Positions 1-30,193 of a DNA stretch of 64,000 nucleotides are shown one piece after another. The DNA is from Candidatus Poriferisocius sp. (GTDB lineage: Bacteria; Actinomycetota; Acidimicrobiia; Acidimicrobiales; Bin134). Where the stretch lies: NCBI GenBank assembly GCA_965208545.1, contig OZ242341.1, positions 543,380 through 607,379 of the forward strand. The letters run 5' to 3'. Made by a program: the position numbers and the translations under genes. The notes below the pieces were generated by a model, which saw only the letters and a program-made list of their open reading frames with translations, was not told the DNA's origin and ran no database searches. Each line of letters starts with the position of its first letter. Position 1 is the first letter of the stretch.

Positions 1-858
1 GAATCGGTGGTCGTTGCCGACTTGGACCTGTCCCTGTTTGAACCCGACCGGCTGGAGGGGCGACGGCCCCAGGTGTACGGCCCGCTGGCCCAGACCCACA
101 CCACTCGGCCCGACGTGGAGCGGGACTTTGATGTGATCGTGGGATGCGTTCCCGGCGCCCGGTCAAATACCGAGTTGGTCGGGGAGGCCATCGACGCCGG
201 GGCCTCCCTAGTGGTGCTGCCCGAGCTGACACCGCCGCCGTCCAACATATCTCCCGGACTGCTGGTGGTGACCTCCGCCCGTCGAGACGACCAGCATCTC
301 GGCCAGGTGTGGTCGGCCGACGGCCTCGTCCACGAACAAGCGCAGGTCCACCTCAGCGTCCGCCACCCAAATGCCACCCGGTTGGGCACCGAAGTGAGCC
401 TGCACCCGACCCCCTTCGGCGACTTGGCGGTGATTGTGGGGGACGATCACCGCTATCCCGAGATTTTCCGACTGGCGGCAATCGCCGGAGCCCACCTGGT
501 GGCCGTTTGCTGGCAACCGGAAAATCGCTGGGAGTGCGACCTGGCTCTGGTTGAGCGGGCCGCGGAGAACCGGATCAGTGTGGCAGCGTGCGGATCCCCG
601 GGACCGCTGGCCGCCACCATGCTGCTCGACCCGCCGGCCGATTCGCTGTGGAATCCCGATCGGTCGAGCCCCTACAACGGGACCATCAACACCCCGATCA
701 GCCAGCGGGCCGAACCCGACGACGAACTCCTGATCGGCAAGATGCACCCCGGCCGAGCAGTGAACCGAGAGGTGTCCAAGGACACCGACCTCGTGGGCGG
801 GAGACCGTGGCAGGCTTCAGCGGTGCTCGCCGAAAGCACTTCAGGGGTTGGCGACTAG
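1..858 (+). CDS. carbon-nitrogen hydrolase (nitrilase-superfamily) protein, C-terminal part; the gene starts upstream of the window
   Basis: Frame 1 is open from the window edge to the stop at 858. The first ~30 residues (VVVADLDLSL..RRPQVYGPL) look like the end of one CN-hydrolase domain. A second CN-hydrolase-like domain follows, with the glutamate motif VVLPELT. The usual Cys-motif position reads VIVGDDHRYPE. Confidence 0.55.
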   Translation, partial: ESVVVADLDLSLFEPDRLEGRRPQVYGPLAQTHTTRPDVERDFDVIVGCVPGARSNTELVGEAIDAGASLVVLPELTPPPSNISPGLLVVTSARRDDQHLGQVWSADGLVHEQAQVHLSVRHPNATRLGTEVSLHPTPFGDLAVIVGDDHRYPEIFRLAAIAGAHLVAVCWQPENRWECDLALVERAAENRISVAACGSPGPLAATMLLDPPADSLWNPDRSSPYNGTINTPISQRAEPDDELLIGKMHPGRAVNREVSKDTDLVGGRPWQASAVLAESTSGVGD

Positions 859-1673
859 TGGGAAGGCACCCGAGCAAGCACCGCTCGGGCCCAGCGCATC
901 ACCGCGGCGTCGATGAACTCACCGTCGATCACCGCCACCGCCCGACCGTCGGCCGTCGCCTCCTCGAAGGCGGCTACGACCCCCTTAGCTCGGGCGATCT
1001 CGTCGTCTGATGGGGTAAAGGCCGCGTTGACCGCGTCCACCTGCTTGGGGTGTATCACCGACCGGCCACCGAAGCCGTGGCGGCGAAGCGACTCGCTGGT
1101 GGCGACCAGCCCCGCATGGTCGTCGAGGTTGGTGAACACCGGCCCACACGGTGCTTCGAGACCCTCGCCCACCGATGCCACCACCACCCGAGTGCGGATC
1201 GGCCACATCTCCAAGGCGTCGGGCGAAGGCTCCATGCCCATGTCGGCGGCCAGATCGGCCTCGCCCAAGGCCAGGCGCACCACTTCGGTGACGGCAGCGA
1301 TGTCGTAGATCTGGGCCACTCCAACCGCTGACTCGATCAGCGCGGTCACCGGGCAGCCGCCGAAGTCGATAGAGCAAGCGGTGGCGTCGGCCTTGGGCAC
1401 CACCACCCCGGCAAATCCCACTCCGTCAGAAACCAGCGACCGCACCAGTTCGGCATCTTCGCCCACCAAGTCGGGGCGGTTGTTGATCCGCACCCAAGCC
1501 GGCACGCCGGGATTGGCCCGCAGCCATTGGCCGACCGCCTCCCGGGCAGTGGCCTTGGCCGCTTCGGCCACCGCGTCCTCAAGATCGCAGATGATGGCGT
1601 CAGCCCCCGACTTGAGCGCCTTGTCGAAGCGGTCGGGACGATCTCCGGGGACATAAAGCGTGGTGCGGCTCAT
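855..1673 (-). CDS. HpcH/HpaI aldolase / citrate-lyase beta-subunit-like (CitE-type) lyase
   Basis: ATG at 1673. The N-terminus MSRTTLYVPGDRPDRFDKALKSGADAIICDLEDAV matches the CitE/HpcH signature. The stop overlaps the convergent upstream gene by 4 nt. Confidence 0.8.
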   Translation of the reverse strand: MSRTTLYVPGDRPDRFDKALKSGADAIICDLEDAVAEAAKATAREAVGQWLRANPGVPAWVRINNRPDLVGEDAELVRSLVSDGVGFAGVVVPKADATACSIDFGGCPVTALIESAVGVAQIYDIAAVTEVVRLALGEADLAADMGMEPSPDALEMWPIRTRVVVASVGEGLEAPCGPVFTNLDDHAGLVATSESLRRHGFGGRSVIHPKQVDAVNAAFTPSDDEIARAKGVVAAFEEATADGRAVAVIDGEFIDAAVMRWARAVLARVPSH

Positions 1674-1736: not shown

Positions 1737-1762
1737 GAAACGTTGTTCCGCTTACCGGAACA
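1737..1762 (+). promoter_or_regulatory. operator-like motif copy S1: GAAAC-gt-TGTTCC-gcttac-CGGAACA
   Basis: It lies in the 117-bp divergent intergenic region, 28 nt upstream of ATG 1791. The same block spacing occurs at 8394, 20278 and 23853. TGTTCCG/CGGAACA form a 7-bp inverted repeat. Confidence 0.6.
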
Positions 1763-1790
1763 GTGTGCCGCTGACGACACCGGAGCACCA

Positions 1791-2603
1791 ATGCGCGAGA
1801 CGCTGAAGGGCGTCCAAGACATCTTTGACGAGCGGGGCCCGACAGATGCCACGGGCACGTTCAATCGGCTGTGGTCGATCACCGAAGAGCTCATGGTAAA
1901 GATCGAGGCCCGGTTCGAACTGGTACGAGATCCCAGTACGGAGGACTTGGAGTCGTACCGAGGCGACGCCGAATACCCCGCAGGGCGGCTGGCTGGCTAC
2001 ACCGGACCGGAGATGGACTGGCTGGTCCACTCATGGATCGGCAACCCCCCGCTGGGGTTCACCAACATGCACGTCACCGCCTGGCTCGGGCCCCATATCG
2101 ACGTGCCCCATCTAGGCATCGCCTGGGGGACACTGCCGGACTTGTGGTTCTACATCGACTTCAATCCTCGCTCCGATCTCATGCTCGACACCGATTCGCT
2201 CGACAAGTTCTGGGGTCCGCTCAACGAGGAGTTCTTAGAGCTGCGGGCCGATGAGGGGCTGGCCCCGTTCACCTCCCGGGCGCTGTACGTTCGCCAGGCC
2301 CTGAGCGAAGTGGCCATCTGCTTCACTACCCCGGGCATCGTCTACGACGAGAGCCGGCTGAACCAGGTGAGCGAATTGGCCCACCGCCGGGTCGACCAGT
2401 GGCTGGCGTGGGTGGACGAGGCCGAGCCCGTGCCGCTTGAGCGCCGGGAACAGCTGGCCGCCGGCGATCTGGCCCGGCGGCGTAACATCGCCGAGAGAGA
2501 CCCGGCCAACATCATGGGCGTTCGTTTCTTCGGAGAGGAGATGACCGACCGTCTCGTGCGTGCCCTGTGGGGCGGCGACCGGGTGTTGCCCCGACCAAGC
2601 TGA
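1791..2603 (+). CDS. red chlorophyll catabolite reductase (RCCR)-like / bilin-reductase-fold protein, paralogue 1
   Basis: ATG 1791 is preceded by GGAG. It resembles plant RCCR at motif level, recalled from memory: HSWIGNPPLG, VPHLGIAWG..LWFYIDFNPRSDLMLDTDSLDKFWGPL, SRALYVRQALS, and the C-terminal ARRRNIAERDP..FFGEEMTDRLVRAL. The long 5' extension of the tracked ORF (from 1527) overlaps the divergent gene and was discarded. Confidence 0.6.
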   Translation: MRETLKGVQDIFDERGPTDATGTFNRLWSITEELMVKIEARFELVRDPSTEDLESYRGDAEYPAGRLAGYTGPEMDWLVHSWIGNPPLGFTNMHVTAWLGPHIDVPHLGIAWGTLPDLWFYIDFNPRSDLMLDTDSLDKFWGPLNEEFLELRADEGLAPFTSRALYVRQALSEVAICFTTPGIVYDESRLNQVSELAHRRVDQWLAWVDEAEPVPLERREQLAAGDLARRRNIAERDPANIMGVRFFGEEMTDRLVRALWGGDRVLPRPS

Positions 2604-2614
2604 GGGGAACTGGG

Positions 2615-3754
2615 ATGTTGATCAAGAACCAGTGGTACGCCGTGGAATTCGGGCAGTGGGTGACCGACCAGCCGGTGCTGGCCCGGGTCCACGGCCACGA
2701 TCTGGTGCTGTGGCGCAGCCCGAACGGCACGGTCAACGCCCAGTCCGATTTGTGCGTCCACCGGGGCGGGTCCCTGGCCGGCGGCTCGGTGGTGGGCGAT
2801 TGCGTGCAGTGCCCCTACCACGGCTGGCGCTACGGAGCCGATGGGGCCTGCGTGGAGATTCCGGCCAACCGCCCCGACCTGCCCATTCCCAAGAAGGCCC
2901 GGATCGACACCTATCCTTGCATCGAGCGCTACGGCTTCGTGTGGGTATTTCTCGGCGATCTGGCGCCCGAACAGCGGCCCCCGGCGCCGGAATTGGAGGG
3001 CCTTGAGGAGCACACTGAGGCCAGGGCCGAGGGATACCGGGCGGTCATCGGAGAGTTCACCTGGCAGGCCAACTACGACCGGGTGCTGGAGAACGCGGTG
3101 GACATCGCCCATACCCCCTTCGTGCACTCCGGCTCGTTCGGCAACAAAGACGAGCCCGAGATCCAAGACTTCGACCTCGACGAAACCCGGGTCAACGGCC
3201 ACTTGGCGTCGGTCACCGCCACCGTGGAACTCGAACCGCCCCGCCCGTCGGGGCTGTGGCGGTTCATCTCCAAGAAAGACCGACCGCCGGTGAGCACCTC
3301 CACCGGGTTCTACCCGCCCAATGTGTCGATGCTCATCGTGCGGCTGCCCATGGGCGAGATCCGCATCTTCACCGCCGCGGTGCCCCGCGACGAGCACGTC
3401 ACCGTCTCCAAGTTCTGCATGTTGCGCACCTTCTTCACCGGGGGCTGGGCCGACAAGAACTCCTACGAGCGCACAATCAAGATCTTCCTGGAGGACCAGC
3501 CCACAGTCGAGGGCCAGCGCCCGGAGCTGCTGCCGTTCGACCTGTCGGCCGAGCTGCACGTCAAGTCCGACTCCATCCAACTGGCCTACCGTCGCTGGCG
3601 CCAGGAGCAGATCGACAAGGGCTGGGCGCTGCAGATCCCGTCGGATGAGGAGGCCATGAGGGCCGCGGCGGTGATTCCCTCTCCGGGACGCTCCAACGAC
3701 CCCGAGTTGGCCAACGCCTGGGTGTTCCCCACCGTGGGGGAGGACCGATCATGA
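2615..3754 (+). CDS. Rieske [2Fe-2S] non-heme-iron oxygenase, alpha-only type (PaO/CAO/Tic55/VanA-like group)
   Basis: Rieske motif CVHRGGSL-x-CPYHGWRY and mononuclear-iron motif ENAVDIAHTPFVH are present. ATG 2615 follows GAGGGG. Confidence 0.85.
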   Translation: MLIKNQWYAVEFGQWVTDQPVLARVHGHDLVLWRSPNGTVNAQSDLCVHRGGSLAGGSVVGDCVQCPYHGWRYGADGACVEIPANRPDLPIPKKARIDTYPCIERYGFVWVFLGDLAPEQRPPAPELEGLEEHTEARAEGYRAVIGEFTWQANYDRVLENAVDIAHTPFVHSGSFGNKDEPEIQDFDLDETRVNGHLASVTATVELEPPRPSGLWRFISKKDRPPVSTSTGFYPPNVSMLIVRLPMGEIRIFTAAVPRDEHVTVSKFCMLRTFFTGGWADKNSYERTIKIFLEDQPTVEGQRPELLPFDLSAELHVKSDSIQLAYRRWRQEQIDKGWALQIPSDEEAMRAAAVIPSPGRSNDPELANAWVFPTVGEDRS

Positions 3755-4470
3755 GTCTGTCGGCTGACCTCAGCATTGGCACGGTGGAGGCCATCGCCGA
3801 TCGCCTGGGGTTGGAGGAGACGGTGAACACTCCCTTGGTCTCGGCCATGGACGGTTCACCGGTGGGCGCCCATCGGGTGCTGGCCCGCGACGGGGTGGCG
3901 GCGCTGGTGTACGCGGGCATGAAGGTTGATGCCTTCGGGCTGGACAGCCACATGTGCTTCGCCTTCACCCCCGCGGCCAGCCCGGTGCCCCATTTCACCG
4001 TGGACTCGGTGCTGGCCGGACCGCACTATGCGTTCCACTTGGACTTGATCCCCCGCCTGGACCCGGGCGCCAACCTGGCCTACATCGACCACTGCTATGG
4101 CCCGCTCACCGAGGTTCACGACGAGACCATGCAGATCGAGGGACTCACCCCGGCACACCTGTCACCCCGCCAATGGCAGCTCATGTCGGCGTGGATGCTG
4201 GCCCACCGGGCTGACGAGGACGGATTTCGGGCGGTGTTCGGTGCGGTGGCCTCCTATCGGGACCACTGGCTAGACCTGGTGGCCGATGGTGTACCCGACG
4301 AGGCCACCGGCGGGGCCACTGCCGAGCAGCTGGCTGAACGGGATGCCCGCAACCGGGCTGCCATCTTCAATCCAGCGGTCGATCCCGTGTGGGCCCGGGT
4401 CGATCAGCTGCTCGGCCCCGAGACGAGCGCCGTCATCCAGGCCAGCCTCAAAACCGCGGCCCGCTCCTAG
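3751..4470 (+). CDS. RCCR-like / bilin-reductase-fold protein, paralogue 2
   Basis: ATGA overlap with the Rieske gene. It aligns by eye with the 1791 gene: SPVPHFTVDSV..YAFHLDLIPRLDPGANLAYIDHCYGPL against DVPHLGIAWGT..LWFYIDFNPRSDLMLDTDSLDKFWGPL. The C-terminal ERDARNRAAIF..LLGPETSAVIQASLK resembles the RCCR C-terminus. Confidence 0.55.
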   Translation: MSLSADLSIGTVEAIADRLGLEETVNTPLVSAMDGSPVGAHRVLARDGVAALVYAGMKVDAFGLDSHMCFAFTPAASPVPHFTVDSVLAGPHYAFHLDLIPRLDPGANLAYIDHCYGPLTEVHDETMQIEGLTPAHLSPRQWQLMSAWMLAHRADEDGFRAVFGAVASYRDHWLDLVADGVPDEATGGATAEQLAERDARNRAAIFNPAVDPVWARVDQLLGPETSAVIQASLKTAARS

Positions 4471-4491
4471 CCGATCACGAGGGAGAGCACC

Positions 4492-5433
4492 ATGAGCGAA
4501 TCCGAAGCCTCCGAGTGGCAGCAGCGCATCACCGGTGAGTGGTACGGCCTGCCGTCGGTGTTCGACGCCGAGGGAAACCACACCGGGTTCAACAAGGTCA
4601 GCCGGGCCAGCGTTTTCGCCGACGGCAAAGTCACCTACTGGATGCAGTGCAACTTCATGAACACCGGCCCGCTTCGCAACCGGTTCGAGATCAAGGACTT
4701 CGAGTTCGGCGTGGACGACCGGGGCGACGACCGCATCTACCAGGGTCCCGACTTCTACGGCGCCGGCCATCCCTATGGCTCACTGGTGGACTCGCACTAC
4801 TACGCGCCGGGGTGGCGGGCCGACCTCAACACCATGAACCAGATCCTGCCCGACGGAGTGACCCAGGTGTACTCGTCGCTGCTGTACGAGGGACCCACCA
4901 TCTTCTCGGTGTTCAACGGCGTTTACCTGAACGCCCACGACTACGACACCAACCCCGAGACCAAGGCGTGGATCGACGCCCACATCGAGGCCGAACGGGA
5001 GATGGCGGCCTGGCCCCACACCGTGCCCGACCGCACCGGGGGTGAGTGGACCGGGGAGTGCGAGGTGTTCGGGGCCGACCAGCAGCGCCGCGGATCAGTG
5101 AGCGTGCGCCTGCGCCATGACCCCATCGATCTGGTGCGCGCCACCCACGCTCTGGAGCTCACCGGGGCGATCGACTACTCGCACACCTACATCCGCACCC
5201 GGTCGCACGGCAACCGCTACACCTACGACGGCCCCGACCTCTGGGGCAACGCCATCGCCTACGGCCGAGCCCTCTACACCTCTCAGCACCACGTCAGCGA
5301 AGCATTCAAGGTCAAAGGCCGAGAGTTCATCATCGACCGCGACTACACCCTGGCCGTGGCTTGGAAGCTCTACTCCGGCGACCGGATGACCGACATCGTC
5401 TTCGGCCCCCTCACCTTCACCCCCGACGCCTAA
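4492..5433 (+). CDS. calycin/lipocalin-like beta-barrel protein, two GxWxG modules, function unknown
   Basis: ATG 4492 follows GAGGGAGAG. GxWxG motifs are ITGEWYGLPSVFDAEG and TGGEWTGECEVF. It resembles the three neighbouring minus-strand genes. Confidence 0.55.
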   Translation: MSESEASEWQQRITGEWYGLPSVFDAEGNHTGFNKVSRASVFADGKVTYWMQCNFMNTGPLRNRFEIKDFEFGVDDRGDDRIYQGPDFYGAGHPYGSLVDSHYYAPGWRADLNTMNQILPDGVTQVYSSLLYEGPTIFSVFNGVYLNAHDYDTNPETKAWIDAHIEAEREMAAWPHTVPDRTGGEWTGECEVFGADQQRRGSVSVRLRHDPIDLVRATHALELTGAIDYSHTYIRTRSHGNRYTYDGPDLWGNAIAYGRALYTSQHHVSEAFKVKGREFIIDRDYTLAVAWKLYSGDRMTDIVFGPLTFTPDA

Positions 5434-6089
5434 CCGACCACCACCGATACCGAGCGGTTCCCGTCGTCAATGACTTCGGTGATCTCGATGCCGGTGGCTC
5501 CGATGGTGTCGTGCATGGCCCAGAGGCGGCGGCGCTGGGAGGGGGAGGGCCAATCGGTGGCTACCAGCATGGGCCCGACGGCCCGGCGCAGCGGCCAGGT
5601 GCCATCGGGATCGGGGGGCGGGGCCGACAGGTCCAGGCGTGGCTCCTCGCTGGAGGCCTCGGGGACGGCCACCCCCACGATGTCGGCTACTGATCGGCCG
5701 GCCAGGGAGAAGAATCCGCCGGTGAGTTGGCGGTCGGGGGCCACCAGCACGCTGTAGGACTCGAATTCGTAGCCGAATCGGGGCCAGAGACCCTGTCCGG
5801 TAAGGGCGCCGGGCTGCCACAGGGTGCCGGAGCCCACCACGTCGGGGCCGAGATAGCGACGCTGGTCTCCGTCTATCTCCAGATCGAATACCCACTCGCC
5901 CGCGAAGGCGGCCATGGGGTGGCCGGCCAGTTGGGACGAGGGTTGGCACTGCTGGGTGACCACCAGCCGACCCTCTCCGGCCTGTTCCACGATCCGGCGC
6001 TGAGCGACCTCGCCGCGAAACGTGCCGTCGGGGTCGTAGACGTACTCGACGATCAGCCAGTCACCGCCGAAGCGGTCTCTCTCGGTCAT
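5430..6089 (-). CDS. calycin/lipocalin-like beta-barrel protein (GxW motif), function unknown
   Basis: The internal ATG 6089 (MTERDRFGGDWLIVEYVYDPDG) forms an ATGA overlap with the stop of the upstream gene at 6086. The longer tracked ORF (to 6203) would overlap that gene. Confidence 0.6.
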   Translation of the reverse strand: MTERDRFGGDWLIVEYVYDPDGTFRGEVAQRRIVEQAGEGRLVVTQQCQPSSQLAGHPMAAFAGEWVFDLEIDGDQRRYLGPDVVGSGTLWQPGALTGQGLWPRFGYEFESYSVLVAPDRQLTGGFFSLAGRSVADIVGVAVPEASSEEPRLDLSAPPPDPDGTWPLRRAVGPMLVATDWPSPSQRRRLWAMHDTIGATGIEITEVIDDGNRSVSVVVG

Positions 6090-6988
6090 GCCGGTTCGAA
6101 GGCCAAGGCCCCGTAGGCCGCTCCGATTCGCTGCTCGCCCCGATACCAGGTGTGGAGCACCGCCTTCATGGTGCCGTCTCGCGACACCACCTCGCGCCGC
6201 CACACCCGGAGTCCTTCGGAGAGGAGGTGGAATTGTCCGCTGAATCCCCTCCCGCCACTGAGGCTGCCGCTGCCCATCAGATCACCCGCCGGAGTCCACG
6301 CCGTCCAACCGTCTGACAGCAAGGTAAACGACAAGCCAGACGAGTAGTCCGCCCCCGACAGCTCCACATCCCAAGAGTTGCCCAGGGCCGCGACCGATTC
6401 GATGTAGTCAGCGGGGCCGGTTGGCGTGTACTCGGCGTCCAGGCGATGCAGCTGCCCCGACCAGCGGCCGGGTCGCAGCAACAACAGCTCACCTCGTCCT
6501 GCCGATGGGTCGTCACGCAGCCACTCGGGATCCATCGCCGCCACCGGGGGAGGCACAGGATCCGACGGGTCGACCTGGCGCTGGTATTCACCCACCACCG
6601 TCCATTGGAGCCGATCGCCCCGGCTGAGCAGGGCCAGCGAGAGTTGATGAGAGCCGTCGGGCAGCACCATCAAGAAGAAGCGCTGCGACAGCCCCAGGTC
6701 GGGCCAGTAGTTGTGGGCGGCTACCAGGCCGTCGCCCAGCGCCTCGGCATAGCCGATGTTGAGGGGCCCCTCGTAGGTCCGGTGCGAGCCGTGATCGGCG
6801 ATGGTGTAGACGCCCGACAGCGAGAACGGCCCGTCGAACTCGACCTCCACCGTCACCCGCCCGGCCTGGTCGTCGGCCTTGACCGATCGGGTGTCTCGCC
6901 CTATGCCGGCAAAGCGTCCGTCGCCGTCATAGACCTCAGCGGCGCCGATCCACTCTCCAACTCCCTGGGAGAACGACCCTTGGCTCAC
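6086..6988 (-). CDS. calycin/lipocalin-like beta-barrel protein, two GxWxG modules, function unknown
   Basis: Motifs GVGEWIGAAEVYDGDG and RPGRWSGQLHRLDAEY. The GTG start at 6988 is inferred from the duplicated ancestral GTGA junction, and GAAGG lies upstream. An alternative ATG start is at 7009. Confidence 0.55.
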   Translation of the reverse strand: MSQGSFSQGVGEWIGAAEVYDGDGRFAGIGRDTRSVKADDQAGRVTVEVEFDGPFSLSGVYTIADHGSHRTYEGPLNIGYAEALGDGLVAAHNYWPDLGLSQRFFLMVLPDGSHQLSLALLSRGDRLQWTVVGEYQRQVDPSDPVPPPVAAMDPEWLRDDPSAGRGELLLLRPGRWSGQLHRLDAEYTPTGPADYIESVAALGNSWDVELSGADYSSGLSFTLLSDGWTAWTPAGDLMGSGSLSGGRGFSGQFHLLSEGLRVWRREVVSRDGTMKAVLHTWYRGEQRIGAAYGALAFEPA

Positions 6989-7062
6989 ATTCGGACCTTC
7001 GCAGCCCATGAGACGATGGGCCGGTCGCCCTGGGAGAGCGATCCCTTACTCACATTCGGACC
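6963..7062. repeat. 35-bp imperfect direct repeat (6963-6997 and 7028-7062, 30/35 identical, offset 65 bp) duplicating a gene-gene junction
   Basis: Both copies read ccctgggaga.cga.cc....ctcacattcggacc. Copy 2 holds the stop of gene 7050-7868. Copy 1 holds the start of gene 6086-6988. Confidence 0.85.
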
Positions 7063-7868
7063 AAGCGCACCGTCTGCGTGGCCACAGGGGTGGCGGTCAG
7101 CACCGCGCCGAGGTCGGTATCGGGAGGCTGGGGGGCCAGATACCGGCCCTCGGTGGCCAGCGCAAGCCCGTCTTCGCCAAACGGGTAGGGATCCAGCCCG
7201 TATTCCCCGCCGGGACGCTCGACCACCGAGATGGTCACGTCGTCGCCCACCGCTCGGGGCACGTTGGGGAAGTCGGAGGTGCCCCGCTCGCCTTCGGGAG
7301 CCAGGTGGAAGTACAGGGAGATGGTGTCGAAGAACTGGAGCTGCTTGTAGGCGTGGAACAGATATTCGTCGGTGGCGTGATCGGGATCGTCGGCGGCCAA
7401 CTGCTCCTTCAGGCGGCGCTGGCGGCTCTCCTCGTTGCCCAGCATGGCGTCGACTTCGGGGCGCAACTCGTCGGGGATCACGTCCAAAAAGATCTTGTCG
7501 CTCAACCCGTACCGTCCCCGGTAGAGGCCATAGGTGTGCATCGAAGAGATGATGCCGCTGAACGGATGATGGGATTCGTTGAACGCCGGAGAGCCCGCTG
7601 AGGTGGTCACGATCTGGGGCAGCGGGGTGGCGGTCAGGTTGTAGGGCAAGCCGGTGTCGGGATTCTGAGGGGCTTGGGCGTCGAGGTCGGCCCAGCCCTG
7701 GTCGTGATGGTCGACGATGAACTGCATCGGCTCGGCCGGTTCGAGCCCGTCGAACTCCTCGTTGCCGAAGTTGGCGGCCAGCGACCCGGCGAAGGCGGTG
7801 TGCTGGTGCATGGCGATAACGAAATGGGGGGCGTCGGCGATTCCTCCGGGGGCGCTTTGGACGATCAT
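7050..7868 (-). CDS. His-rich hypothetical protein (DUF3891-like by recollection)
   Basis: ATG 7868. His clusters: AMHQHTAF, VDHHDQGWADLD, NESHHPFSG, SSMHTYG. No confident family assignment. Confidence 0.5.
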   Translation of the reverse strand: MIVQSAPGGIADAPHFVIAMHQHTAFAGSLAANFGNEEFDGLEPAEPMQFIVDHHDQGWADLDAQAPQNPDTGLPYNLTATPLPQIVTTSAGSPAFNESHHPFSGIISSMHTYGLYRGRYGLSDKIFLDVIPDELRPEVDAMLGNEESRQRRLKEQLAADDPDHATDEYLFHAYKQLQFFDTISLYFHLAPEGERGTSDFPNVPRAVGDDVTISVVERPGGEYGLDPYPFGEDGLALATEGRYLAPQPPDTDLGAVLTATPVATQTVRLVRM

Positions 7869-7946
7869 GGCCGCTGCACCCGGGTGAAGTCTTGGATCTG
7901 GAAACTCATGGCCGCTGCACCCGGGTGAAGTCCTGAATCTGGAACA
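7865..7946. repeat. 41-bp tandem duplication (7865-7905 and 7906-7946, about 37/39 identical) of an ATGA gene junction
   Basis: tcatggccgctgcacccgggtgaagtc(t/c)tg(g/a)atctggaa occurs twice. It duplicates the last 12 codons plus stop of gene 7906-8361 and the ATGA overlap with the next gene. Confidence 0.9.
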
Positions 7947-8361
7947 GGTTGGTGGCGCCGTCGCGCACCTTGTGGGTGATTATGCGACGGGTGTCGGGGT
8001 CCAAGAAGTAGTGGTTGTTGTAGACGATGTTGTTGCTCACCCGGCTGTCGATGGTGAAGACGTAGTTGTAGGGCGTGAGCTCGGCGCCTTCGAGGCTGAG
8101 CTGGTCGCTGTCGGCAAAGCACCGCTTGCCGTCGACTTGGATTGGGGTGTCGAAGATGGTTTCGCCCACCCCGTAGAGGTTCTCGAAGTGCTCGTGAAGG
8201 TGCCAGGTGCTGTTGTTGAGCCAATACACGTCCATGTGAACGGCGCTGGACTCGAGGAAATCGCCATGGGGGGTGAAGCTCTTGCACAACCCCTCCCAGT
8301 GGCCCATAAAGCACTGATAGGGCCGAGGTGAGGGTGGTCCGTAGTTTCTCGTATCGCTCAC
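7906..8361 (-). CDS. calycin/lipocalin-like beta-barrel protein, single GxWxG module, function unknown
   Basis: GTG 8361. Motif FMGHWEGLCKSFTPHG. It is the first gene of the minus-strand operon of the cluster. Confidence 0.55.
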   Translation of the reverse strand: MSDTRNYGPPSPRPYQCFMGHWEGLCKSFTPHGDFLESSAVHMDVYWLNNSTWHLHEHFENLYGVGETIFDTPIQVDGKRCFADSDQLSLEGAELTPYNYVFTIDSRVSNNIVYNNHYFLDPDTRRIITHKVRDGATNLFQIQDFTRVQRP

Positions 8362-8393
8362 GTTGGGAAGCGTAGAGTGTGCTGGAACTTGAT

Positions 8394-8419
8394 GAAACCG
8401 TGTTCCTCTGAGCGAAACA
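8394..8419 (+). promoter_or_regulatory. operator-like motif copy S2: GAAAC-cg-TGTTCC-tctgag-CGAAACA
   Basis: It lies in the 80-bp divergent intergenic region between 8361 (-) and 8442 (+), with the same spacing as S1, S3 and S4. Confidence 0.6.
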
Positions 8420-8441
8420 AAGCAATGGCAATGAGCGCCGC

Positions 8442-9401
8442 ATGATCGTCCGAGGGCTGCACTTCTCCTTCGATGCTGGCGGAGATGCCGCGCTGGCCAC
8501 CCTTTTCTACCCCGGCGACGATGGCCGACTGGACGAAGCCAGACTGACCGGGCAAGTTCCGGCCGACGACACCGATGCTCCGTGGCCGGTGGTTGTGCTG
8601 CTGCCGGGCATCAACGTGGTGCCCGACGGCTATCGGTGGCTGGCCCATCGACTGGTGGCCGACGGACTGTGCATGGTGACCTATGCGGCCATCGGGTCGC
8701 TGGGACCGGCGGGTCGGGGCATAACCCCCGGCATCGACCTGGCCGCTTTGGCCCCCGACACCATCGGCACCCGGCCGTCGGCCACCGCCCTCGGACCGCT
8801 GCTCGCCCATCTGGCTGAGCAGGCCGCCGATGAGCACAGCCCAGTAGCCGGGCGGGTGGATCTGGACCACGTAGTCGTGGGGGGCCATTCGGCGGGGGGC
8901 ACGGCCGCGTTGCACAACAGCGATCCGGGTTGGGTGCCGGGATTGCAGGCAGTGTTCGCCTACGCGGCCCACACCATGATGGCCACGGCGTTGGGCCATG
9001 GCGAGGCCGCCGTGGTGCCCATTCCGGCCCAGGTGCCGATAATGCTGCTGGGCGGTGCCGACGACGGCGTTATCGCCGCCAGCCGCGACCGATATCGCAC
9101 CGACGACGAAGCCCACGATCCCGTTCGCCGCACCTTTGCCGAGGCCATTGATCGGCAGCAGGGAGATTCTTGGCTGGTCGAGTTGGCCGATGCCGGACAC
9201 TTCGCCATGTGCGACCCGGTGGACACCACCAGCGGCCGCTCCTTCTTGGAGCCCGATCCCACGACGGTCGACCCATCCATCCGCAACCTGCTCGGCGACC
9301 TCATCGCCGGGTTCGTCGCCACCAGCCTGGGAAGACCAACCGACGCGAGCCTCGACCGGCTGGTCGAACAACCATCGATCAGGCACTGGGATCGACGCTG
9401 A
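8442..9401 (+). CDS. alpha/beta hydrolase, chlorophyllase / dienelactone-hydrolase-like
   Basis: Nucleophile elbow VVGGHSAGGTAAL. The layout parallels plant chlorophyllase as recalled: WPVVVLLPGI..Y.WLAHRLVADG, ADAGHFAMCDP, and C-terminal IRNLLGDLIAGFVATSL. Confidence 0.65.
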   Translation: MIVRGLHFSFDAGGDAALATLFYPGDDGRLDEARLTGQVPADDTDAPWPVVVLLPGINVVPDGYRWLAHRLVADGLCMVTYAAIGSLGPAGRGITPGIDLAALAPDTIGTRPSATALGPLLAHLAEQAADEHSPVAGRVDLDHVVVGGHSAGGTAALHNSDPGWVPGLQAVFAYAAHTMMATALGHGEAAVVPIPAQVPIMLLGGADDGVIAASRDRYRTDDEAHDPVRRTFAEAIDRQQGDSWLVELADAGHFAMCDPVDTTSGRSFLEPDPTTVDPSIRNLLGDLIAGFVATSLGRPTDASLDRLVEQPSIRHWDRR

Positions 9402-9426
9402 GAACTAGCAACAGGAGGGAAATGAA

Positions 9427-10233
9427 ATGACCAAGCGCATCGTCATCACCGGCAGCACCAGGGGGATCGGCAACGGGTTGGCCCGCGAGTTCTTGAAGCG
9501 CCGATGCCAGGTGGCGGTGAGCGGCCGTTCAGCAAGTCAGGTCGACGATGTGGTGGCCGAGCTGGGCCAGTACTACGGCGAGTCCAAAGTTTGCGGCGCG
9601 GCCTGCGACATCACCAATCCCGAACAGCTCCAGCGGCTGTGGGACTGTGCAGCAGGGGCTTTCGGCGGCGTCGATGTGTGGGTCAACAACGCGGGGGTCA
9701 GCATCACCCGCCAGCCGTTGTGGGAGCAGCAGGATGGAGAACTGGCCGCGCTGGTTGACACCAACCTCACCGGCGCGCTGCTGGCCAGCAAGACCGCTGT
9801 CGCCAATATGGTGCGCCAAGGCCACGGTCAAGTTTGGAACACCGAGGGATTCGGGTCCGACGGCGCCACCCAGCCCGGCATGGCCGCCTATGGGGCCACC
9901 AAGCGGGCGGTGCGGTATCTGCAAAAGGCCCTGCGCAAGGACACCGCCGACACCCCGGTGCAGGTGTGCACGGTGTCACCAGGCATCGTGGTGACAGACT
10001 TGCTCACCGGCGACTACGACCTCACCTCCGAGCAATGGGAAAAGTCGAAGAAGATCTTCAACATCCTGGGCGACCACGTCCACACTGTGACTCCCTGGCT
10101 GGCCGACCACATTCTGGCCGCCGACAAGTCAGGCGCCCGGGTGGTGTGGCTGACCCGGCGCAAGGCCTTCGCCCGGTTCATGACCGCCTCGTTCCGAAGG
10201 CGCGACCTCTTCAGGGAGATCGAGGGGGCTTAG
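9427..10233 (+). CDS. short-chain dehydrogenase/reductase, chlorophyll b reductase NOL/NYC1-like subfamily
   Basis: AGGAGG RBS. ITGSTRGIGNGLAREFL, NNAG, GFGSDGATQPGMAAYGATKR (YxxxK) and VSPGIVVTDLL closely parallel the recalled Arabidopsis NOL motifs ITGSTKGIGYALAREFL, GAGSDGRPTPRFAAYGATKR and LSPGMVTTDLL. Confidence 0.7.
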   Translation: MTKRIVITGSTRGIGNGLAREFLKRRCQVAVSGRSASQVDDVVAELGQYYGESKVCGAACDITNPEQLQRLWDCAAGAFGGVDVWVNNAGVSITRQPLWEQQDGELAALVDTNLTGALLASKTAVANMVRQGHGQVWNTEGFGSDGATQPGMAAYGATKRAVRYLQKALRKDTADTPVQVCTVSPGIVVTDLLTGDYDLTSEQWEKSKKIFNILGDHVHTVTPWLADHILAADKSGARVVWLTRRKAFARFMTASFRRRDLFREIEGA

Positions 10234-10299
10234 CTGAGCCTGGCGCTAGGGATTCTGAGGGGGCTTAGCTGAGCCTGGCGCTAGGGATTCTGAGGGGGC
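10222..10299. repeat. perfect 35-bp tandem duplication x2 plus an 8-bp partial third copy, at a convergent gene junction
   Basis: gagggggcttagctgagcctggcgctagggattct occurs at 10222-10256 and 10257-10291, followed by gagggggc. Each unit contains the stop codons of both convergent genes. Confidence 0.95.
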
Positions 10300-13049
10300 G
10301 TGATCGAGCCGCTGCGAGCGATGGCGGTGGGGTCGCCGCCCAAATAGCTCTGGACCACCGCAGGATCAGCTTGGACCTCGGCTGGGGTTCCCTCGGCGAT
10401 CACCGCACCCACTTCCAAGGCGAGGAGGCGATCGCACACCGAGGCCAATAACGGCATGTCGTGCTCGATCACCACCAGGGTGAGGCCATAGACCTCGCGG
10501 ACTTGTTCAATGGCTGCCCCGAGGGCCTCCGTCTCGGCTTGGGCAATGCCCGCCGACGGTTCGTCCATGAGCAGAAGACGGGGGCGCAGAGCCACATTGG
10601 CAGCCAACTCGACCAGGCGGCGGGTGCCGGTGGACAGCGCGCTGACAGGTTGGTCGACCAGGCTGCTCAGGCCGAACATGGCCAGCGTCTCAGCAGTTTC
10701 GTCTTCGAGTTCCCGCTCAGTGCGAGATCCGCCGACCACGAACCCATGCTGGTGCGCCCGCTGGTTGGCCAGAAAGATGATGTCTCGAGGGGTCATGGTC
10801 GGGAACAGCGGCGCATTCTGGAATGAGCGCACCAACCCCCGGCGGCTGCGGTTCTCCGGGGTCAATCGGGTGATGTCGTCTCCTTCGAAGAGCACCGCGC
10901 CAGCATGGGGCCGCAGGTAGCCGCTGATCAGCTCGAACAGGGTGGTCTTGCCCGCGCCGTTTGGTCCGATCAGCCCCAGTGTCTCTCCCGCGTCGACTCG
11001 GAACGACACATCATCCACTGCGACGAGGTCCCCAAAACTCCTGGTGAGACCCCTCACCTCCAGCATGATTCCTTCCGATCTTGAAGCCTGGACCGAAGCT
11101 GCCGCTGCCACCGATGCCATGCCTGCCTCGTGGTCGCCTGCCTCACTCCGGGCTTGAATCGGATCGATGCCCCGCAGCCGGGCGATCTGGTCGATGAGGT
11201 TGCGCCGAGTGGTGGCCAGCAGGCCGTGGAAACCCCGGGGCTGCTCCAGAATCAAGATCAGCCATGCGGCATTCAAACCAGCGAGAGCCGACAGCTCGAG
11301 ATCGAAGAACTCGCGAATGCCGATCAGATAGGCCGCGCCGATTAGGGGGCCGGTCAGCTCTGAGAGCCCGCCGATGACGGCCAGCGAGACCACGTTGATG
11401 CTGTCGCTGGGGGTGAAGATGCTGCGGGTGACAAAGGTGTTGCTCATGGCCAGGATCACACCGCCGACACCGGCCACGAACCCGGCGAAGGCATAGGCCT
11501 GCAACAGCAGCCGCCGAGGGGCGATCTGCAACACCCGGGCCGCCGCCTCGTTGTCGCGCACCGCCACCAGCGAGCGCCCGAAAGAGGATCGGCGCAGCAC
11601 ATTAGCGATAGCTAGCACGGCCACGAACACCGCCAGCGCCACGAAGTAGAAGGCCCGCGACGTGGTGAGATCGATTCCGAAGACGCTGGCCGGGCGCGAC
11701 GACAGTCCAACGCCGAACGCCCAGTCTTGGCGGAGCAGCCAGCTGAAGGTGGCCAGGGCGAAGGCCAGCGTTGCGATGGCCAGCAGCAGGCCCCTCACCC
11801 TTAGGGCCGGCAACCCGACCGCGGCCGATGCCGCCGCGCCAACCACCCCGCCGCACAGCAGGCCCAGCACCAGGCTGCCGGTGTCGGTGGCCACCCGTAC
11901 CCCGGCCACGGCGCCGAGGGCGGCAAAGGCCACTTGGCCCAGCGACAGCTGGCCGGCCAGACCAGTGAGAAAGCTCACCGAGATGCCGATGGTGGCAAAA
12001 GCCACGATGGTCGACAGCACGAACGCCGACCGGTTGCTGATCCCCAGAGGCACCAGAGCCGCCGCCACCGCGGCTACCCCTCCCACAACCCAGCCCAAGT
12101 TCCGGATCATCCAGACGTCGCGATACGAGTCGGGCAGTCGCCGGCTGGGGGACAGGCTGGACCAGCGCTCCGGCAATTCGCGGCCGACGCGCACTTGCAT
12201 GCCCACCCCGATCAGGATGAGCAGGAACAGGGCCACTTCGAACCATCCGGTGGCTTCGGAGTTGGACGCCAGAATCTGCTCGACCACGCCGATCCCCAGA
12301 CCGGCGAGAAGGGCGATGGGCAGGTTGGCGAATCGGGCCAGGGCTGCCACGGCCAGGCCGCGGATGATGAAGTCGGGCCCGAGGGCGTCAGCGGTGACCG
12401 TCGACTGGTTGGGGATGATGAGCATGGCCGCGAACGCGGCGATGCCCCCGGCCAGCGCCCACGACAGCATGGCCATGTGCCGGGGGTCCACCCCGGCCAA
12501 AGTGGCTGAGTCGGGGTTGGCGGCCGCCCCCCGAATGGCCAGGCCGAACCGGCTCCGCTGGAGAAACAGGTAGAGCCCGCCCACCACCACCGGCGACAGG
12601 CACAGCAGCGCGGTGGCCGACGGCGACACGAACACGGTGAGGTCGAATTGGGGGAACCCCGACGGCTGAGGGAAGTTGCCCCCGCCCAGGCCCCCTTTGG
12701 AAAATGACAGGGCCAATAGCAGCAATGCCTCGGCCGCCCCGAGAGTGGCCACCATCGACAGCACTTTGGGCGCCGAAGCCAGCTTCCGCACCACGAAGGC
12801 CTCTATGCCGGCGGCGATCAGCGCAGCCACGATCAGCGCGCCGACAAAGCCCAACCAGTAGGGCACCCCGTAGTCCTTGACCACCACCGACATCATCGAG
12901 GCGGCTACCAGGCCAATCGAGCCATGGGCGAAGTTGATGAATCCGCTGGATCGGTAGGCCAACACCAAGCCGATGCCCAAGAGGGCATAGCCGAGACCGA
13001 AGATCGTTCCCAGCAGAAGCAGCGGGCCGGAGATGTCGAAGGAGCCCAT
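10281..13049 (-). CDS. fused branched-chain-amino-acid-type ABC transporter: LivH-like permease + LivM-like permease + LivG-like ATPase in one 922-aa polypeptide
   Basis: The N-terminus [26 protein letters not shown] is LivH-like and a second permease block follows. The C-terminal ATPase has [16 protein letters not shown] and LLLMDEP. Confidence 0.85.
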
Positions 13050-15043: not shown

Positions 15044-15052
15044 GGCGGCCGA

Positions 15053-16537: not shown

Positions 16538-16565
16538 CGGACACACTCTTTCACGGGGATGGAGT

Positions 16566-18061: not shown

Positions 18062-18121
18062 GTCCTCAACCAGTGTCTCGCCGGTTGCCCGATTCGTGGC
18101 CTCAGCTTCCAATGCCGCTCC

Positions 18122-19396: not shown

Positions 19397-19397
19397 A

Positions 19398-30192: not shown

Positions 30193-30193
30193 C

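Follow-up and report, generated by a model that had tools for sequence, protein, structure and literature searches.

To our knowledge, all characterised members of the superfamily that unites the red chlorophyll catabolite reductases (RCCR) with the ferredoxin-dependent bilin reductases (FDBR) act on linear tetrapyrroles, and we know of no pathway for N-heterocycle degradation in which FDBR-fold proteins are used. An initial annotation had proposed that homologues of four plant chlorophyll-breakdown families are combined in one bacterial locus and knew of no described bacterial cluster of this kind; our literature search likewise found none published. The locus lies in a window of 64,000 nt (the whole stretch of DNA that was analysed; contig OZ242341.1, positions 543,380 to 607,379, forward strand) from Candidatus Poriferisocius sp., a sponge-associated actinobacterium. 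All ten ORFs (g1-g10) were recovered in the three-operon layout previously described (plus strand 1791-5433, minus strand 8361-5430, plus strand 8442-10233), with start codons corrected from orthologue alignments in 2 of the 10 genes (the Rieske gene g2 starts at 2615, not 2567, and g5 at 6089, the onset of conservation). The gene content, homologies, folds, synteny and shared operator of the set are demonstrated in this analysis, and we tentatively regard it as a regulon for the catabolism of pigments derived from tetrapyrroles, compounds derived from chlorophyll being the leading candidate. Were this true, it would represent an undescribed bacterial pathway for consuming chlorophyll-like pigments, one that is open to experiment since carriers such as Thermomonospora echinospora, Aeromicrobium wangtongii and Streptomyces flavidovirens DSM 40150 are in culture.

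Homologies and folds of the ten proteins

The product of g1 (1791..2603, plus strand) matched Pfam RCC_reductase (5e-12, 46 bits; cut-off 24.9) and, weakly, Fe_bilin_red (15.8 bits), and among solved structures it matched plant RCCR (3agb) at 1.3e-7 as compared to 0.25 for bilin reductase. The second, divergent RCCR-like protein, g3 (3751..4470, plus strand; g3 start and g2 stop overlap in ATGA), had no single-sequence match in Pfam; the profile of its family aligned with the g1 family (hhalign, 97.8% probability, E 8e-13, 222 columns) and retrieved plant RCCR as the best PDB match (1.5e-4), followed by HY2 (0.034). Both proteins thus match plant RCCR better than any bilin reductase, which upholds the earlier assignments, and their predicted membership of the plant red-chlorophyll-catabolite-reductase lineage, with its bilin-reductase fold, is specifically supported. 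These two proteins flank or follow the oxygenase g2 and favour a tetrapyrrole substrate.

The classical SDR encoded by g10 (9427..10233, plus strand; Pfam adh_short 2e-39) is NYC1/NOL-like and probably NADPH-dependent. Plant and algal chlorophyll(ide) b reductases ranked among its best 150 of 93,925 SDR cluster representatives and were its nearest named relatives (reciprocal check included), which favours a chlorophyll-derived substrate. The alignment with a plant chlorophyll(ide) b reductase (36% identity, 272 residues, E 5e-53) includes the C-terminal extension of the subfamily and the motifs quoted in the initial annotation. The proposed NOL/NYC1 subfamily membership therefore holds as regards nearest named relatives and motifs, but in a neighbour-joining tree g10 falls outside the plant NYC1/NOL clade, within a bacterial one. 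Furthermore, NOL-like SDRs also sit in unrelated gene contexts (e.g. fused to an MFS transporter), which weakens the argument for chlorophyll.

The Rieske non-heme-iron monooxygenase g2 (2615..3754, plus strand) is of the alpha-only VanA/NdmA/SxtT type, with Rieske (4e-20) and VanA_C (4e-26) domains and the motifs CxH...CxxH and E-x3-D-x2-H-x4-H. Its nearest solved relatives, SxtT, SxtDIOX (2.6e-49), NdmA (2e-40) and DdmC, hydroxylate or demethylate small molecules, and none of 19 family members carried the PaO domain, both of which count against chlorophyll; on the same grounds, its classification as a PAO-type oxygenase was rejected. The cytoplasmic alpha/beta-hydrolase g9 (8442..9401, plus strand) falls in the cutinase/PETase/chlorophyllase/DLH neighbourhood and carries GHSAGG and the conserved Asp208 and His253 in alignments. 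Its family profile matched cutinases and PETases at 5.6e-10, and of 17 family members, 14 matched Pfam PETase and 8 Chlorophyllase, in every case weakly, so that g9 would be a generic esterase, chlorophyllase-like at the clan level only and below Pfam cut-offs, which again weakens a chlorophyll assignment. The attribution of four families to chlorophyll breakdown was thus worded too strongly: it is specifically supported for RCCR and the SDR and generic for the Rieske protein and the hydrolase.

The calycin-like proteins are predicted to be lipocalin-type beta-barrels resembling BFA1/DUF3598, the CpcS/CpeS bilin lyases and nitrobindins. The AlphaFold model of g4 (4492..5433, plus strand; pLDDT 93.7), for which no sequence relatives were found in Pfam or PDB, consists of two tandem beta-barrels, with BFA1 (4e-9) and DUF3598 (2o62, 5e-8) as Foldseek matches (TM 0.61-0.69). 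Its paralogue g6 (6086..7009, minus strand), also a double beta-barrel, aligned with it over 298 columns (hhalign, 100%, E 1.5e-84), and the further paralogue g5 (5430..6089, minus strand) keeps an intact N-terminal barrel (matching g6 at 95.2% in hhalign) next to a reduced C-terminal part, from which ~80 aa are deleted in alignment with a 295-aa Anaerolineae orthologue. The very strongly conserved g8 (7906..8361, minus strand; 60-88% identity across phyla, 215 homologues) was modelled as a single 10-stranded barrel (pLDDT 94.9), for which Foldseek retrieved BFA1, the CpeS bilin lyase (1.2e-5), Ycf58/CpcS and nitrobindins. The barrels, put forward initially as pigment-binding, thus have in the g4 and g8 models the fold of tetrapyrrole-binding barrels, and their match to bilin lyases and heme-binding nitrobindins favours a tetrapyrrole. 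The remaining protein, g7 (7050..7868, minus strand; DUF3891, 3e-32), has invariant His/Asp residues (H23, H55-D56, H101, H111, D124, D181), and no sequence relatives were found in PDB.

Conservation, shared operator and flanking genes

Relatives of g1 were present in 322 species genomes, and of 80 species-level loci, 72 have g1-g4 side by side, 50 have a six-gene core and 35 have the full set of ten, an arrangement far beyond chance. Conservation of the module extends over Actinomycetota, Chloroflexota and proteobacterial MAGs, and this synteny marks the genes as one conserved functional unit. In Anaerolineae (Chloroflexota) all ten genes lie within one operon, and in Thermomonospora a nine-gene operon extends from a CN-hydrolase, translationally coupled to g1, to an Amdase gene, most junctions overlapping by 4-8 bp (the hydrolase-Rieske junction is a 9-bp gap). 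In the two proteobacterial variants, the stretch seen contains no Rieske gene, which weakens the argument for chlorophyll; the habitats of the carriers (sponge symbionts, marine Acidimicrobiia, soil actinomycetes) lie alongside phototroph biomass, which we count in its favour.

The operator reported at both internal promoters proved real: GAAAC-N3-GTTCC is conserved, with three exact copies in the window (~0.07 expected) and 132 over the 80 loci (1.5 expected), at conserved promoter positions. The first copy (GAAACGTTGTTCC, 1737..1749) lies 42 bp upstream of the g1 start, and 49 of 80 loci have one within 150 bp upstream of g1; the second (GAAACCGTGTTCC, 8394..8406) occupies the g8/g9 divergent promoter, as in 32 of the 39 loci having both genes; the third (GAAACAGTGTTCC, 20278..20290) is an exact match in the divergent promoter 20162/20284 and may control a minus-strand operon running to the ACAD-like gene and the ABC transporter. 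The operator was also found upstream of a CoA-transferase/IclR pair and of a Streptomyces operon, and the IclR regulator is conserved across loci. From these sequences, the ten genes are predicted to be the upper part of a larger regulon under this regulator and operator. Overlooked initially, this larger regulon further includes hydrolases of the amide/imide type, flavin monooxygenases, CoA-transferases, C-C lyases and a protein resembling maleate isomerase.

Upstream of g1, the window edge cuts a carbon-nitrogen hydrolase (amidase superfamily; 1..858, plus strand) to its C-terminal half, which matches CN_hydrolase weakly; the full-length protein has ~550 aa and two domains, and full-length orthologues (CN_hydrolase 4e-44) lie directly upstream in nearly all loci. 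Divergent from g1, a CitE/HpcH-like acyl-CoA C-C lyase (855..1673, minus strand; HpcH_HpaI 7e-30, C-C_Bond_Lyase 2e-12) is syntenic in most Acidimicrobiia loci, as is, after the SDR, a Liv-type ABC importer (10281..16546, minus strand; fused permease-ATPase, second ATPase protein and solute-binding protein; BPD_transp_2, ABC_tran, Peripla_BP_6). The importer is a possible uptake system of the regulon, a membership that we only infer; since small polar solutes are the usual cargo of Liv-type importers, it weakens a chlorophyll assignment. An acyl-CoA-dehydrogenase-fold protein (16817..18112, minus strand; Pfam) has orthologues (55-76% identity) in the regulon of Streptomyces-type loci and of L085, L087 and L088, adjoining in the latter two a Flavin_Reduct gene, with which it would form a two-component flavin monooxygenase. 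Orthologues of a FAD_binding_3 flavoprotein monooxygenase (21857..23071, minus strand; 3e-54) belong to the regulon in actinomycete loci and L085 (46-53% identity), and those of an Amdase-family protein (arylmalonate decarboxylase / maleate cis-trans isomerase superfamily; 23078..23824, minus strand; 3.6e-16) are found shortly after the SDR in the operons of actinomycetes and Anaerolineae, in some behind a small unknown gene and in L087 and L088 translationally coupled within the operon. The lower-pathway genes of the various lineages (CitE, ICL/PEP_mutase, HMGL-like, PrpD, Aconitase_C, CoA_transf_3, Amdase, Amidohydro_1, CN_hydrolase) appear to converge on branched maleate, malate and citramalate chemistry.

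Candidate substrates and proposed pathway

It is quite possible, though short of probable, that the ten genes constitute the upper pathway of an IclR-controlled regulon that takes up and mineralises a chlorophyll-derived tetrapyrrole, the candidates being pheophorbide- or phyllobilin-like compounds, or oxidised fragments of these. As homology suggests for each upper step, the cytoplasmic esterase g9 would remove an ester group (the phytyl or, more plausibly given its location, the C13(2) methyl ester), g10 would reduce a formyl or keto group with NADPH, g2 would open or hydroxylate the pigment using O2, and g1 and g3, drawing on ferredoxin, would reduce C=C bonds in the linear tetrapyrrole so formed. 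The barrels g4, g5, g6 and g8 may bind or hand over hydrophobic, phototoxic intermediates (g8 being possibly catalytic, given its strength of conservation), and the His-rich g7 may supply a metal-dependent step. In the lower pathway, which we infer from the flanking regulon genes, flavin monooxygenases and aldehyde dehydrogenases would cut and oxidise the chain, giving substituted pyrrolinone or maleimide units, an amidohydrolase and the CN-hydrolase would open and deamidate these, and the substituted maleates would reach central metabolites via the maleate-isomerase-like protein, PrpD/aconitase-type hydratases, CoA-transferases and CitE/ICL/HMGL-type lyases. Such chemistry fits a tetrapyrrole origin because ring-derived 3,4-disubstituted maleimides would give such compounds, and mono- and dipyrrolic products of chlorophyll are on record (PMC7318184). 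The Pfam-labelled contexts contained no genes for Mg-dechelatase (Staygreen), HCAR, ferredoxin or ferredoxin reductase, which weakens the argument for chlorophyll.

We consider it rather unlikely that a non-tetrapyrrole N-heterocycle or amide (an alkaloid, or a metabolite of the indole, pyrrole or pyridine type) is degraded, with the FDBR fold and the barrels recruited for unrelated chemistry. The affinity of g10 to chlorophyll b reductases would then be a coincidence, two FDBR-fold proteins are universally retained here, and lipocalin-type barrels from four genes suggest a large hydrophobic ligand. Nevertheless, the kinship of g2 to small-molecule hydroxylases and N/O-demethylases (SxtT, NdmA, DdmC), the Liv-type transporter and the stock enzymes of the regulon (ACAD-fold monooxygenase with flavin reductase, FAD monooxygenase, two aldehyde dehydrogenases, amidases, maleate-isomerase-like protein) speak for it. 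Accessory enzymes of this sort belong to nicotinate, trigonelline and indole-3-acetate (iac) catabolism, and the likeness of the Rieske, flavin monooxygenase, aldehyde dehydrogenase and amidase set to known N-heterocycle pathways weakens a chlorophyll assignment.

It is unlikely, in our judgement, that the same architecture serves another tetrapyrrole, i.e. heme-derived bilins (biliverdin- or bilirubin-type), phycobilins of cyanobacterial or algal prey, bacteriochlorophyll derivatives or corrinoids, and the earlier caveat, which allows for substrates derived from heme or bacteriochlorophyll, stands. Bilins are general substrates of FDBR-fold proteins (g1 weakly matches Fe_bilin_red), the g8 fold is phycobilin-lyase- and nitrobindin-like, the chlorophyll-specific dechelatase was not found in labelled contexts, and sponges harbour cyanobacteria rich in phycobilins. 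On the other hand, RCCR outscores the bilin reductases for both g1 and g3, the nearest named relatives of g10 are chlorophyll b reductases, free bilins leave the esterase and the O2-dependent Rieske enzyme no obvious role, and no heme oxygenase gene was found in labelled contexts. A biosynthetic cluster, making a pigment or secondary metabolite, is highly improbable: phototroph FDBRs are biosynthetic and tailoring steps are commonly performed by Rieske enzymes and SDRs, but no enzyme that would form a scaffold (PKS, NRPS, terpene synthase, heme oxygenase) is present, amidases, CoA-transferases and C-C lyases share both regulation and translational coupling with the set, the regulator is of the IclR or GntR type, and the module is spread in one conserved form over 322 species.

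As regards the catabolism of chlorophyll-derived compounds, the translational coupling of g3 to g2 recalls the PAO-RCCR channelling of plants, and the g8 model resembles in fold the CpeS/CpcS phycobilin lyases and the nitrobindins.

Layout, conservation and protein families of the cluster

All ten open reading frames of the initial annotation (spanning 1737-10233) were found in the three-operon layout that it had described (g1-g4 on the plus, g5-g8 on the minus and g9-g10 on the plus strand), while two of its starts were moved by orthologue alignments: that of the Rieske oxygenase gene g2 to 2615, and that of the barrel-protein gene g5 to 6089, the point where orthologue conservation sets in. 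The window (G+C 66%) is most closely related to MAGs of sponge-associated Acidimicrobiia that bear the name Candidatus Poriferisocius (g1 being 97% identical in the nearest of their loci, L040), and relatives of g1 were recovered from 322 species-representative genomes. Comparison of 80 fetched loci (several of the incomplete ones being cut by contig ends or insertions) revealed that 72 have g1-g4 as a group, 50 a six-gene core and 35 the complete set of ten; the neighbourhood is conserved across relatives, and this synteny rules out chance co-localisation of the ten genes. In Streptomyces, Micromonospora, Actinomadura, Streptosporangium, Thermomonospora, Nocardioides and Aeromicrobium the genes form an operon on a single strand (g1, hydrolase, Rieske, g3, g4, SDR), in Anaerolineae (Chloroflexota) all ten are co-directional in one operon with a GntR regulator in front, and variants of the cluster reside on two proteobacterial MAG contigs. 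The Thermomonospora operon comprises nine genes (a 544-aa carbon-nitrogen hydrolase, g1, hydrolase, Rieske, g3, g4, SDR, a small unknown gene and an Amdase-family gene), the junctions of which are mostly overlaps of 4-8 bp (with a 9-bp gap between hydrolase and Rieske). A literature search, limited to papers readable without subscription, returned no published account of this cluster, in agreement with the earlier statement that no such bacterial cluster had been described.

The protein encoded by g1 (1791-2603), a member of the FDBR superfamily, scored 46 bits against the Pfam family RCC_reductase (PF06405; curated cut-off 24.9) and 15.8 bits against the general bilin-reductase family, and its residues 48-259 matched the Arabidopsis RCCR crystal structures (1.3e-7), by which we assign it to the RCCR family. 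The divergent g3 (3751-4470), translationally coupled to the O2-dependent Rieske enzyme g2, had no Pfam match as a single sequence; its orthologue profile aligned with the g1 family over 222 columns (97.8% probability, E 8e-13), and the best match of the family profile in the whole PDB was plant RCCR (1.5e-4), with phytochromobilin synthase next (0.034). Given these matches, both proteins had been correctly called RCCR-like. With regard to Glu154 and Asp291, which we take to be the catalytic acidic residues of Arabidopsis RCCR (2010 substrate-complex structures), alignment of the sequences alone puts Asp291 a single position from D237, which is invariant in the g1 family, and Glu154 within an insertion to which no g1 residue is aligned.

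The Rieske oxygenase g2 carries a VanA_C catalytic domain (Pfam), its nearest solved relatives being SxtDIOX/SxtT, NdmA/NdmB and DdmC. Its Rieske motif (CVHRGG...CPYHGW, i.e. CxH...CxxH) and mononuclear-iron motif (ENAVDIAHTPFVH, i.e. E/D-x3-D-x2-H-x4-H) are invariant in the family; since both are common to all VanA-class enzymes, they do not discriminate the PAO group. The PaO domain (PF08417), which marks the plant PAO/TIC55/PTC52/CAO group, was found in none of the 19 family members at E <= 1 (VanA_C being present in all 19), and g2 has no C-terminal membrane anchor (its C-terminus, …PSPGRSNDPELANAWVFPTVGEDRS, lacks a hydrophobic stretch), so that the proposed membership in the PAO family was given up. 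The hydrolase g9 is a cytoplasmic serine hydrolase in which GHSAGG, D208 and H253 are invariant among 17 orthologues, a Ser-Asp-His triad with GxSxG being generic to the alpha/beta-hydrolase fold. It lies in the cutinase/PETase/chlorophyllase/dienelactone-hydrolase neighbourhood and under the curated cut-off for every family: the protein of the window reached 21.8 bits against PF12740 (cut-off 28), 14 of the 17 family members matched PF12740 (best 7.8e-8) and 8 matched Chlorophyllase PF07224 (best 2e-5), with DLH, Hydrolase_4 and others matching alongside, and the precomputed matches of the orthologue in locus L087 were only faint. The chlorophyllase assignment is thereby reduced to a likeness at clan level. 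In one Acidimicrobiales genome (L026, 17052-18233), the orthologue carries a Gly/Ser-rich low-complexity insertion of ~45 residues in a surface loop.

The last gene, g10, encodes a classical SDR (TGSTRGIG and YGATK, i.e. TGxxxGxG and YxxxK) matched by 93,925 SDR cluster representatives, just 290 of them below 1e-30; the best 150 include one plant and one algal chlorophyll(ide) b reductase. The plant enzyme is 36% identical over 272 residues (E 5e-53) in an alignment that runs to residue 258, spans the C-terminal extension past the Rossmann core and recovers the motifs on which the initial NYC1/NOL assignment was based, and it scores 155 bits against g10 as compared to 73 bits against its best solved (PDB) SDR. 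In a neighbour-joining tree of 122 representatives and the syntenic orthologues (star-like, without bootstrap, and informative just for the distinctness of the plant clade), the named plant sequences (P0386 and P0366) formed a separate clade, and g10 grouped with its syntenic bacterial orthologues. As the plant sequences have a clade of their own, g10 is best described, from its sequence, as a member of the NYC1/NOL similarity group outside the plant/algal clade, with chlorophyll b reductase activity predicted at most. Two further NYC1/NOL-like SDRs (P0241 and P0247; L086 10001-12115), 44-52% identical to g10, are fused to MFS transporters on Acidobacteria-type contigs, where no other regulon gene adjoins; considered as a lead to a coupled importer, these fusions were rejected on account of their unrelated genomic context.

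The models of the proteins annotated as calycin-like showed the barrel fold in g4 (pLDDT 93.7; two tandem antiparallel beta-barrels with a helix between them) and in g8 (pLDDT 94.9; a 10-stranded barrel), and profile comparisons tied the other two to g4 (g6 as a clear paralogue, and g5 by matching the first barrel of g6, its second barrel being shortened by ~80 residues as compared to the Anaerolineae orthologue), which upholds the annotation; no Pfam or NCBIfam family was found for any of the four. The fold of g4 matched BFA1, a cyanobacterial DUF3598 protein and then lipocalins and FABPs, and that of g8 resembled BFA1, the phycobilin lyases CpeS and CpcS/Ycf58 and heme-binding nitrobindins. 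BFA1/DUF3598, CpcS/CpeS and the nitrobindins thus have the same lipocalin-type antiparallel barrel (Foldseek probability 1.00, TM 0.57-0.78 to 5yvf, 2o62, 4tq2, 3bdr and 2a13), but at 8-14% identity and with no detectable sequence similarity to g4 and g8; a search of the g4 family profile against PDB sequences likewise returned no relative. Several proteins of these types bind tetrapyrroles, and BFA1 is an ATP-synthase assembly factor. Across phyla g8 is 60-88% identical, and its invariant positions include many His, Cys, Glu and Arg. The remaining protein, g7, belongs to DUF3891 (invariant H23, H55-D56, H101, H111, D124 and D181); its family profile found no solved relative among PDB sequences, a low-threshold Pfam scan of the family gave no tie to another one, and the H...HD...H...H...D pattern leads us to suspect an HD-domain-like protein.

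A shared operator, a candidate regulator and the flanking genes

The motif GAAAC-N3-GTTCC, found by eye and with a regular expression (an inverted-repeat tool and a sigma-70/terminator scan at the promoters yielded nothing useful), has three exact copies in the window (1737, 8394 and 20278) against ~0.07 expected from base composition, all of them in divergent promoter regions. The 80 loci contain 132 copies (1.5 expected): 49 loci have the motif in the 150 bp before g1, 32 of the 39 loci with both g8 and g9 have it between these genes, and it is also present upstream of a CoA-transferase/IclR pair and, in Streptomyces, of the CN-hydrolase gene heading the operon. The shared operator noted earlier at both internal promoters was thereby substantiated, its positions at promoters being conserved in Acidimicrobiia and Streptomyces. 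Orthologues of the IclR regulator were found in 57 loci and accompany the regulon in Acidimicrobiia and actinomycetes; the motif resembles KdgR/IclR boxes, from which the regulator is predicted to bind it (putative site GAAACGTTGTTCC). A conserved regulator together with a palindromic operator at member promoters argues for an IclR-controlled catabolic regulon.

At the g1 promoter, a 7-bp perfect inverted repeat (TGTTCCG-N5-CGGAACA, 1744-1762) overlaps the first operator copy, so that two pairs of half-sites may overlap there. The third copy (20278-20290) lies between two sets of repeat proteins (18122-21870), i.e. an SBBP beta-propeller (18122-19396, minus strand) and a neocarzinostatin-like/acidic-repeat protein (19398-20162, minus strand) on one side, and an FG-GAP protein (20284-21870, plus strand) on the other. 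These proteins could be regulon members, with a possible role in binding or at the cell surface; alternatively, the copy may serve the downstream ACAD/ABC operon. A perfect palindrome at the extreme end of the window (GGAACGCAGTTCC, 63985-63997), one mismatch away from the operator on both strands, may be a further site.

Among the flanking genes, the CN-hydrolase (in the window a truncated ORF at 1-858) is found upstream in nearly all loci, and the Amdase-family gene (23078-23824) follows the SDR in actinomycetes and Anaerolineae, either directly or past a small unknown gene. The Amdase-family proteins of an Anaerolineae MAG (L081 11964-12710) and of Microtetraspora, an actinomycetotal genus (L063 15308-16153), are 80% identical, a value well above that of the other regulon proteins, which suggests strong constraint or recent transfer. 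Orthologues of the ACAD-fold protein (16817-18112) and of the FAD monooxygenase (21857-23071) adjoin core genes in actinomycete loci and on a deltaproteobacterial contig, beside two aldehyde dehydrogenases in the former and one in the latter, and a flavin reductase gene was seen in loci L087 and L088 only. Just upstream of the point matching the window start, L040 harbors, besides one small gene without assigned function, those for an HMGL-like lyase, an Amidohydro_1 protein, a PrpD-family dehydratase, a CoA-transferase and IclR (a 410-aa candidate ORF of this locus was rejected as the antisense strand of the HMGL-like gene); other lineages have alternatives, namely an ICL/PEP-mutase-type lyase or the small subunit of an aconitase. 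Between SDR and Amdase of actinomycete operons, a conserved gene of 225-237 aa (L087 15551-16228; L088 15642-16355) has no Pfam family, and no counterpart of it was found in the window.

Farther along, the window encodes a full-length, eukaryote-like serpin (24839-26167, plus strand; Pfam 2.5e-71), which in a sponge-associated actinobacterium may take part in host interaction. A minus-strand set (28562-33873) looks like sterol or branched side-chain degradation; it comprises an Amidohydro_2 protein, an OB-fold protein of the DUF35/ChsH2 type, a thiolase of the SCP-x type and a protein of 817 aa in which the CoA_transf_3 domain occurs twice. A P450 is encoded at 26390-27688.

Proposed pathway and candidate substrates

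The data show a set of genes, conserved and under common regulation, for cytoplasmic enzymes and for barrels folded like tetrapyrrole binders; among the products are two proteins of the RCCR lineage and an SDR closest to chlorophyll b reductases. The initial picture of four plant chlorophyll-breakdown families is narrowed to RCCR (g1) and the NYC1/NOL similarity group (g10), PAO and chlorophyllase having fallen away. In the pathway that we propose, an imported tetrapyrrole-derived pigment would be de-esterified by g9, reduced at a carbonyl by g10, oxygenated or ring-opened by g2, and reduced at C=C bonds by g1 and g3 in a ferredoxin-dependent manner; the barrels may hold intermediates, and g7 (DUF3891) may carry out a metal-dependent step. 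Flavin monooxygenases and aldehyde dehydrogenases would then fragment and oxidise the chain, Amidohydro_1 and CN-hydrolase proteins would open and deamidate pyrrolinone or maleimide units, and isomerase, hydratase, CoA-transferase and lyase would turn substituted maleates into central metabolites. That intermediates of the branched malate or citramalate type arise is predicted chiefly because CitE, ICL and HMGL lyases recur with the same upper module across lineages. Hematinic acid and methylethylmaleimide are documented mono-/dipyrrolic products of chlorophyll (PMC7318184).

We lean, with somewhat less than even confidence, towards a chlorophyll-derived substrate. Several observations weigh against it: the Rieske enzyme is not PAO-type and the esterase is chlorophyllase-like at clan level alone; the labelled gene contexts contain no dechelatase, HCAR or ferredoxin genes; the adjacent ABC importer is Liv-type; no Rieske gene was seen in the available stretch of the two proteobacterial variants; and NOL-like SDRs turn up in unrelated contexts too. 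A non-tetrapyrrole N-heterocycle and tetrapyrroles other than chlorophyll are less likely alternatives as the substrate, almost equal in weight with the former slightly ahead. A biosynthetic cluster is highly improbable, this reading being rejected on gene content. Taken to its full extent, a chlorophyll-derived substrate would make this the first bacterial route that mineralises chlorophyll-type tetrapyrroles completely and aerobically (RCCR/Rieske/NOL-like opening and reduction, followed by a maleimide-to-dicarboxylate module that frees nitrogen and carbon), widespread in soil actinomycetes, marine/sponge Acidimicrobiia and Chloroflexota, a proposal that we advance as possible, though less likely than not. 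If it is true, plant RCCR and NYC1/NOL share ancestry with these bacterial catabolic enzymes.

To our knowledge, the sole enzymatically defined chlorophyll breakdown is the plant/algal PAO/phyllobilin pathway, which ends at linear tetrapyrroles, and the heterotrophic microbial disposal of chlorophyll, bilins and their fragments, with the return of their nitrogen and carbon, is essentially undescribed. Chlorophyll turnover amounts to about a billion tonnes per year (figure quoted in PMC12930011), and the regulon is a genetically testable candidate for such disposal. Since cultured members of Streptomyces, Micromonospora, Thermomonospora, Nocardioides and Aeromicrobium carry it, the proposed reading is directly testable, with a candidate regulator and operator and five conserved proteins without an assigned function (g8 among them) at hand. 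Even with another substrate, the regulon would provide the first bacterial function for the RCCR branch of the bilin-reductase fold, and roles for DUF3891 and a new double-barrel family. For sponge symbionts, it suggests the handling of phototoxic pigments from the filtered or symbiotic phototrophs of the host.

Relation to known systems

In its logic, the cluster comes closest to the plant PAO/phyllobilin pathway (NYC1/NOL, PPH/CLH, PAO, RCCR), with which it shares a serine esterase, an NYC1/NOL-group SDR, an RCCR-lineage reductase beside a Rieske enzyme that depends on O2, and, as proposed here, the order of de-esterification, carbonyl reduction, oxygenation and ferredoxin-dependent reduction. 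On the other hand, the bacterial Rieske enzyme is VanA/NdmA/SxtT-type (with neither PaO domain nor membrane anchor), the RCCR-like proteins come as a pair of paralogues, the plant components SGR, HCAR and TIC55 are missing, and five extra genes have no assigned function (four barrels and DUF3891). Moreover, the bacterial set is cytoplasmic, operon-encoded and tied to a proposed full mineralising lower pathway, which plants do not have. SxtT/SxtDIOX, NdmA/NdmB, DdmC and VanA equal g2 in architecture (Rieske and VanA_C) and metal motifs (best similarity 2.6e-49 to 1e-31), whereas their systems have no counterpart of its FDBR-fold and barrel partners.

Cyclic-imide/half-amide and branched C5-C6 dicarboxylate catabolism is known from imidase and half-amidase, from the itaconate/citramalyl-CoA route, and from the dimethylmaleate hydratase and dimethylmalate lyase of nicotinate fermentation. 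The flanking genes share with these routes the families Amidohydro_1, CN_hydrolase, maleate-isomerase-like Amdase, PrpD/aconitase, CoA_transf_3 and CitE/ICL/HMGL; here, however, they have regulation, and even translational coupling, in common with an RCCR/Rieske/SDR module, and their substrates and reaction order are predicted. Bacterial FDBR clusters, in which pre-PcyA proteins have Fe-S, V4R and globin partners, are similar in being conserved clusters with bilin-reductase-fold proteins in non-photosynthetic bacteria; they are of PcyA lineage and biosynthetic or signalling, acting after heme oxygenase (PMC10151467), whereas the proteins described here are of RCCR lineage and belong to a catabolic regulon that also includes an oxygenase and hydrolases. 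In FDBR phylogenies, RCCR-related bacterial sequences served as outgroup only, with no function or context given (PMC10151467). Taken together, we rate the cluster as a bacterial counterpart of tetrapyrrole breakdown, extended in scope and divergent in mechanism.
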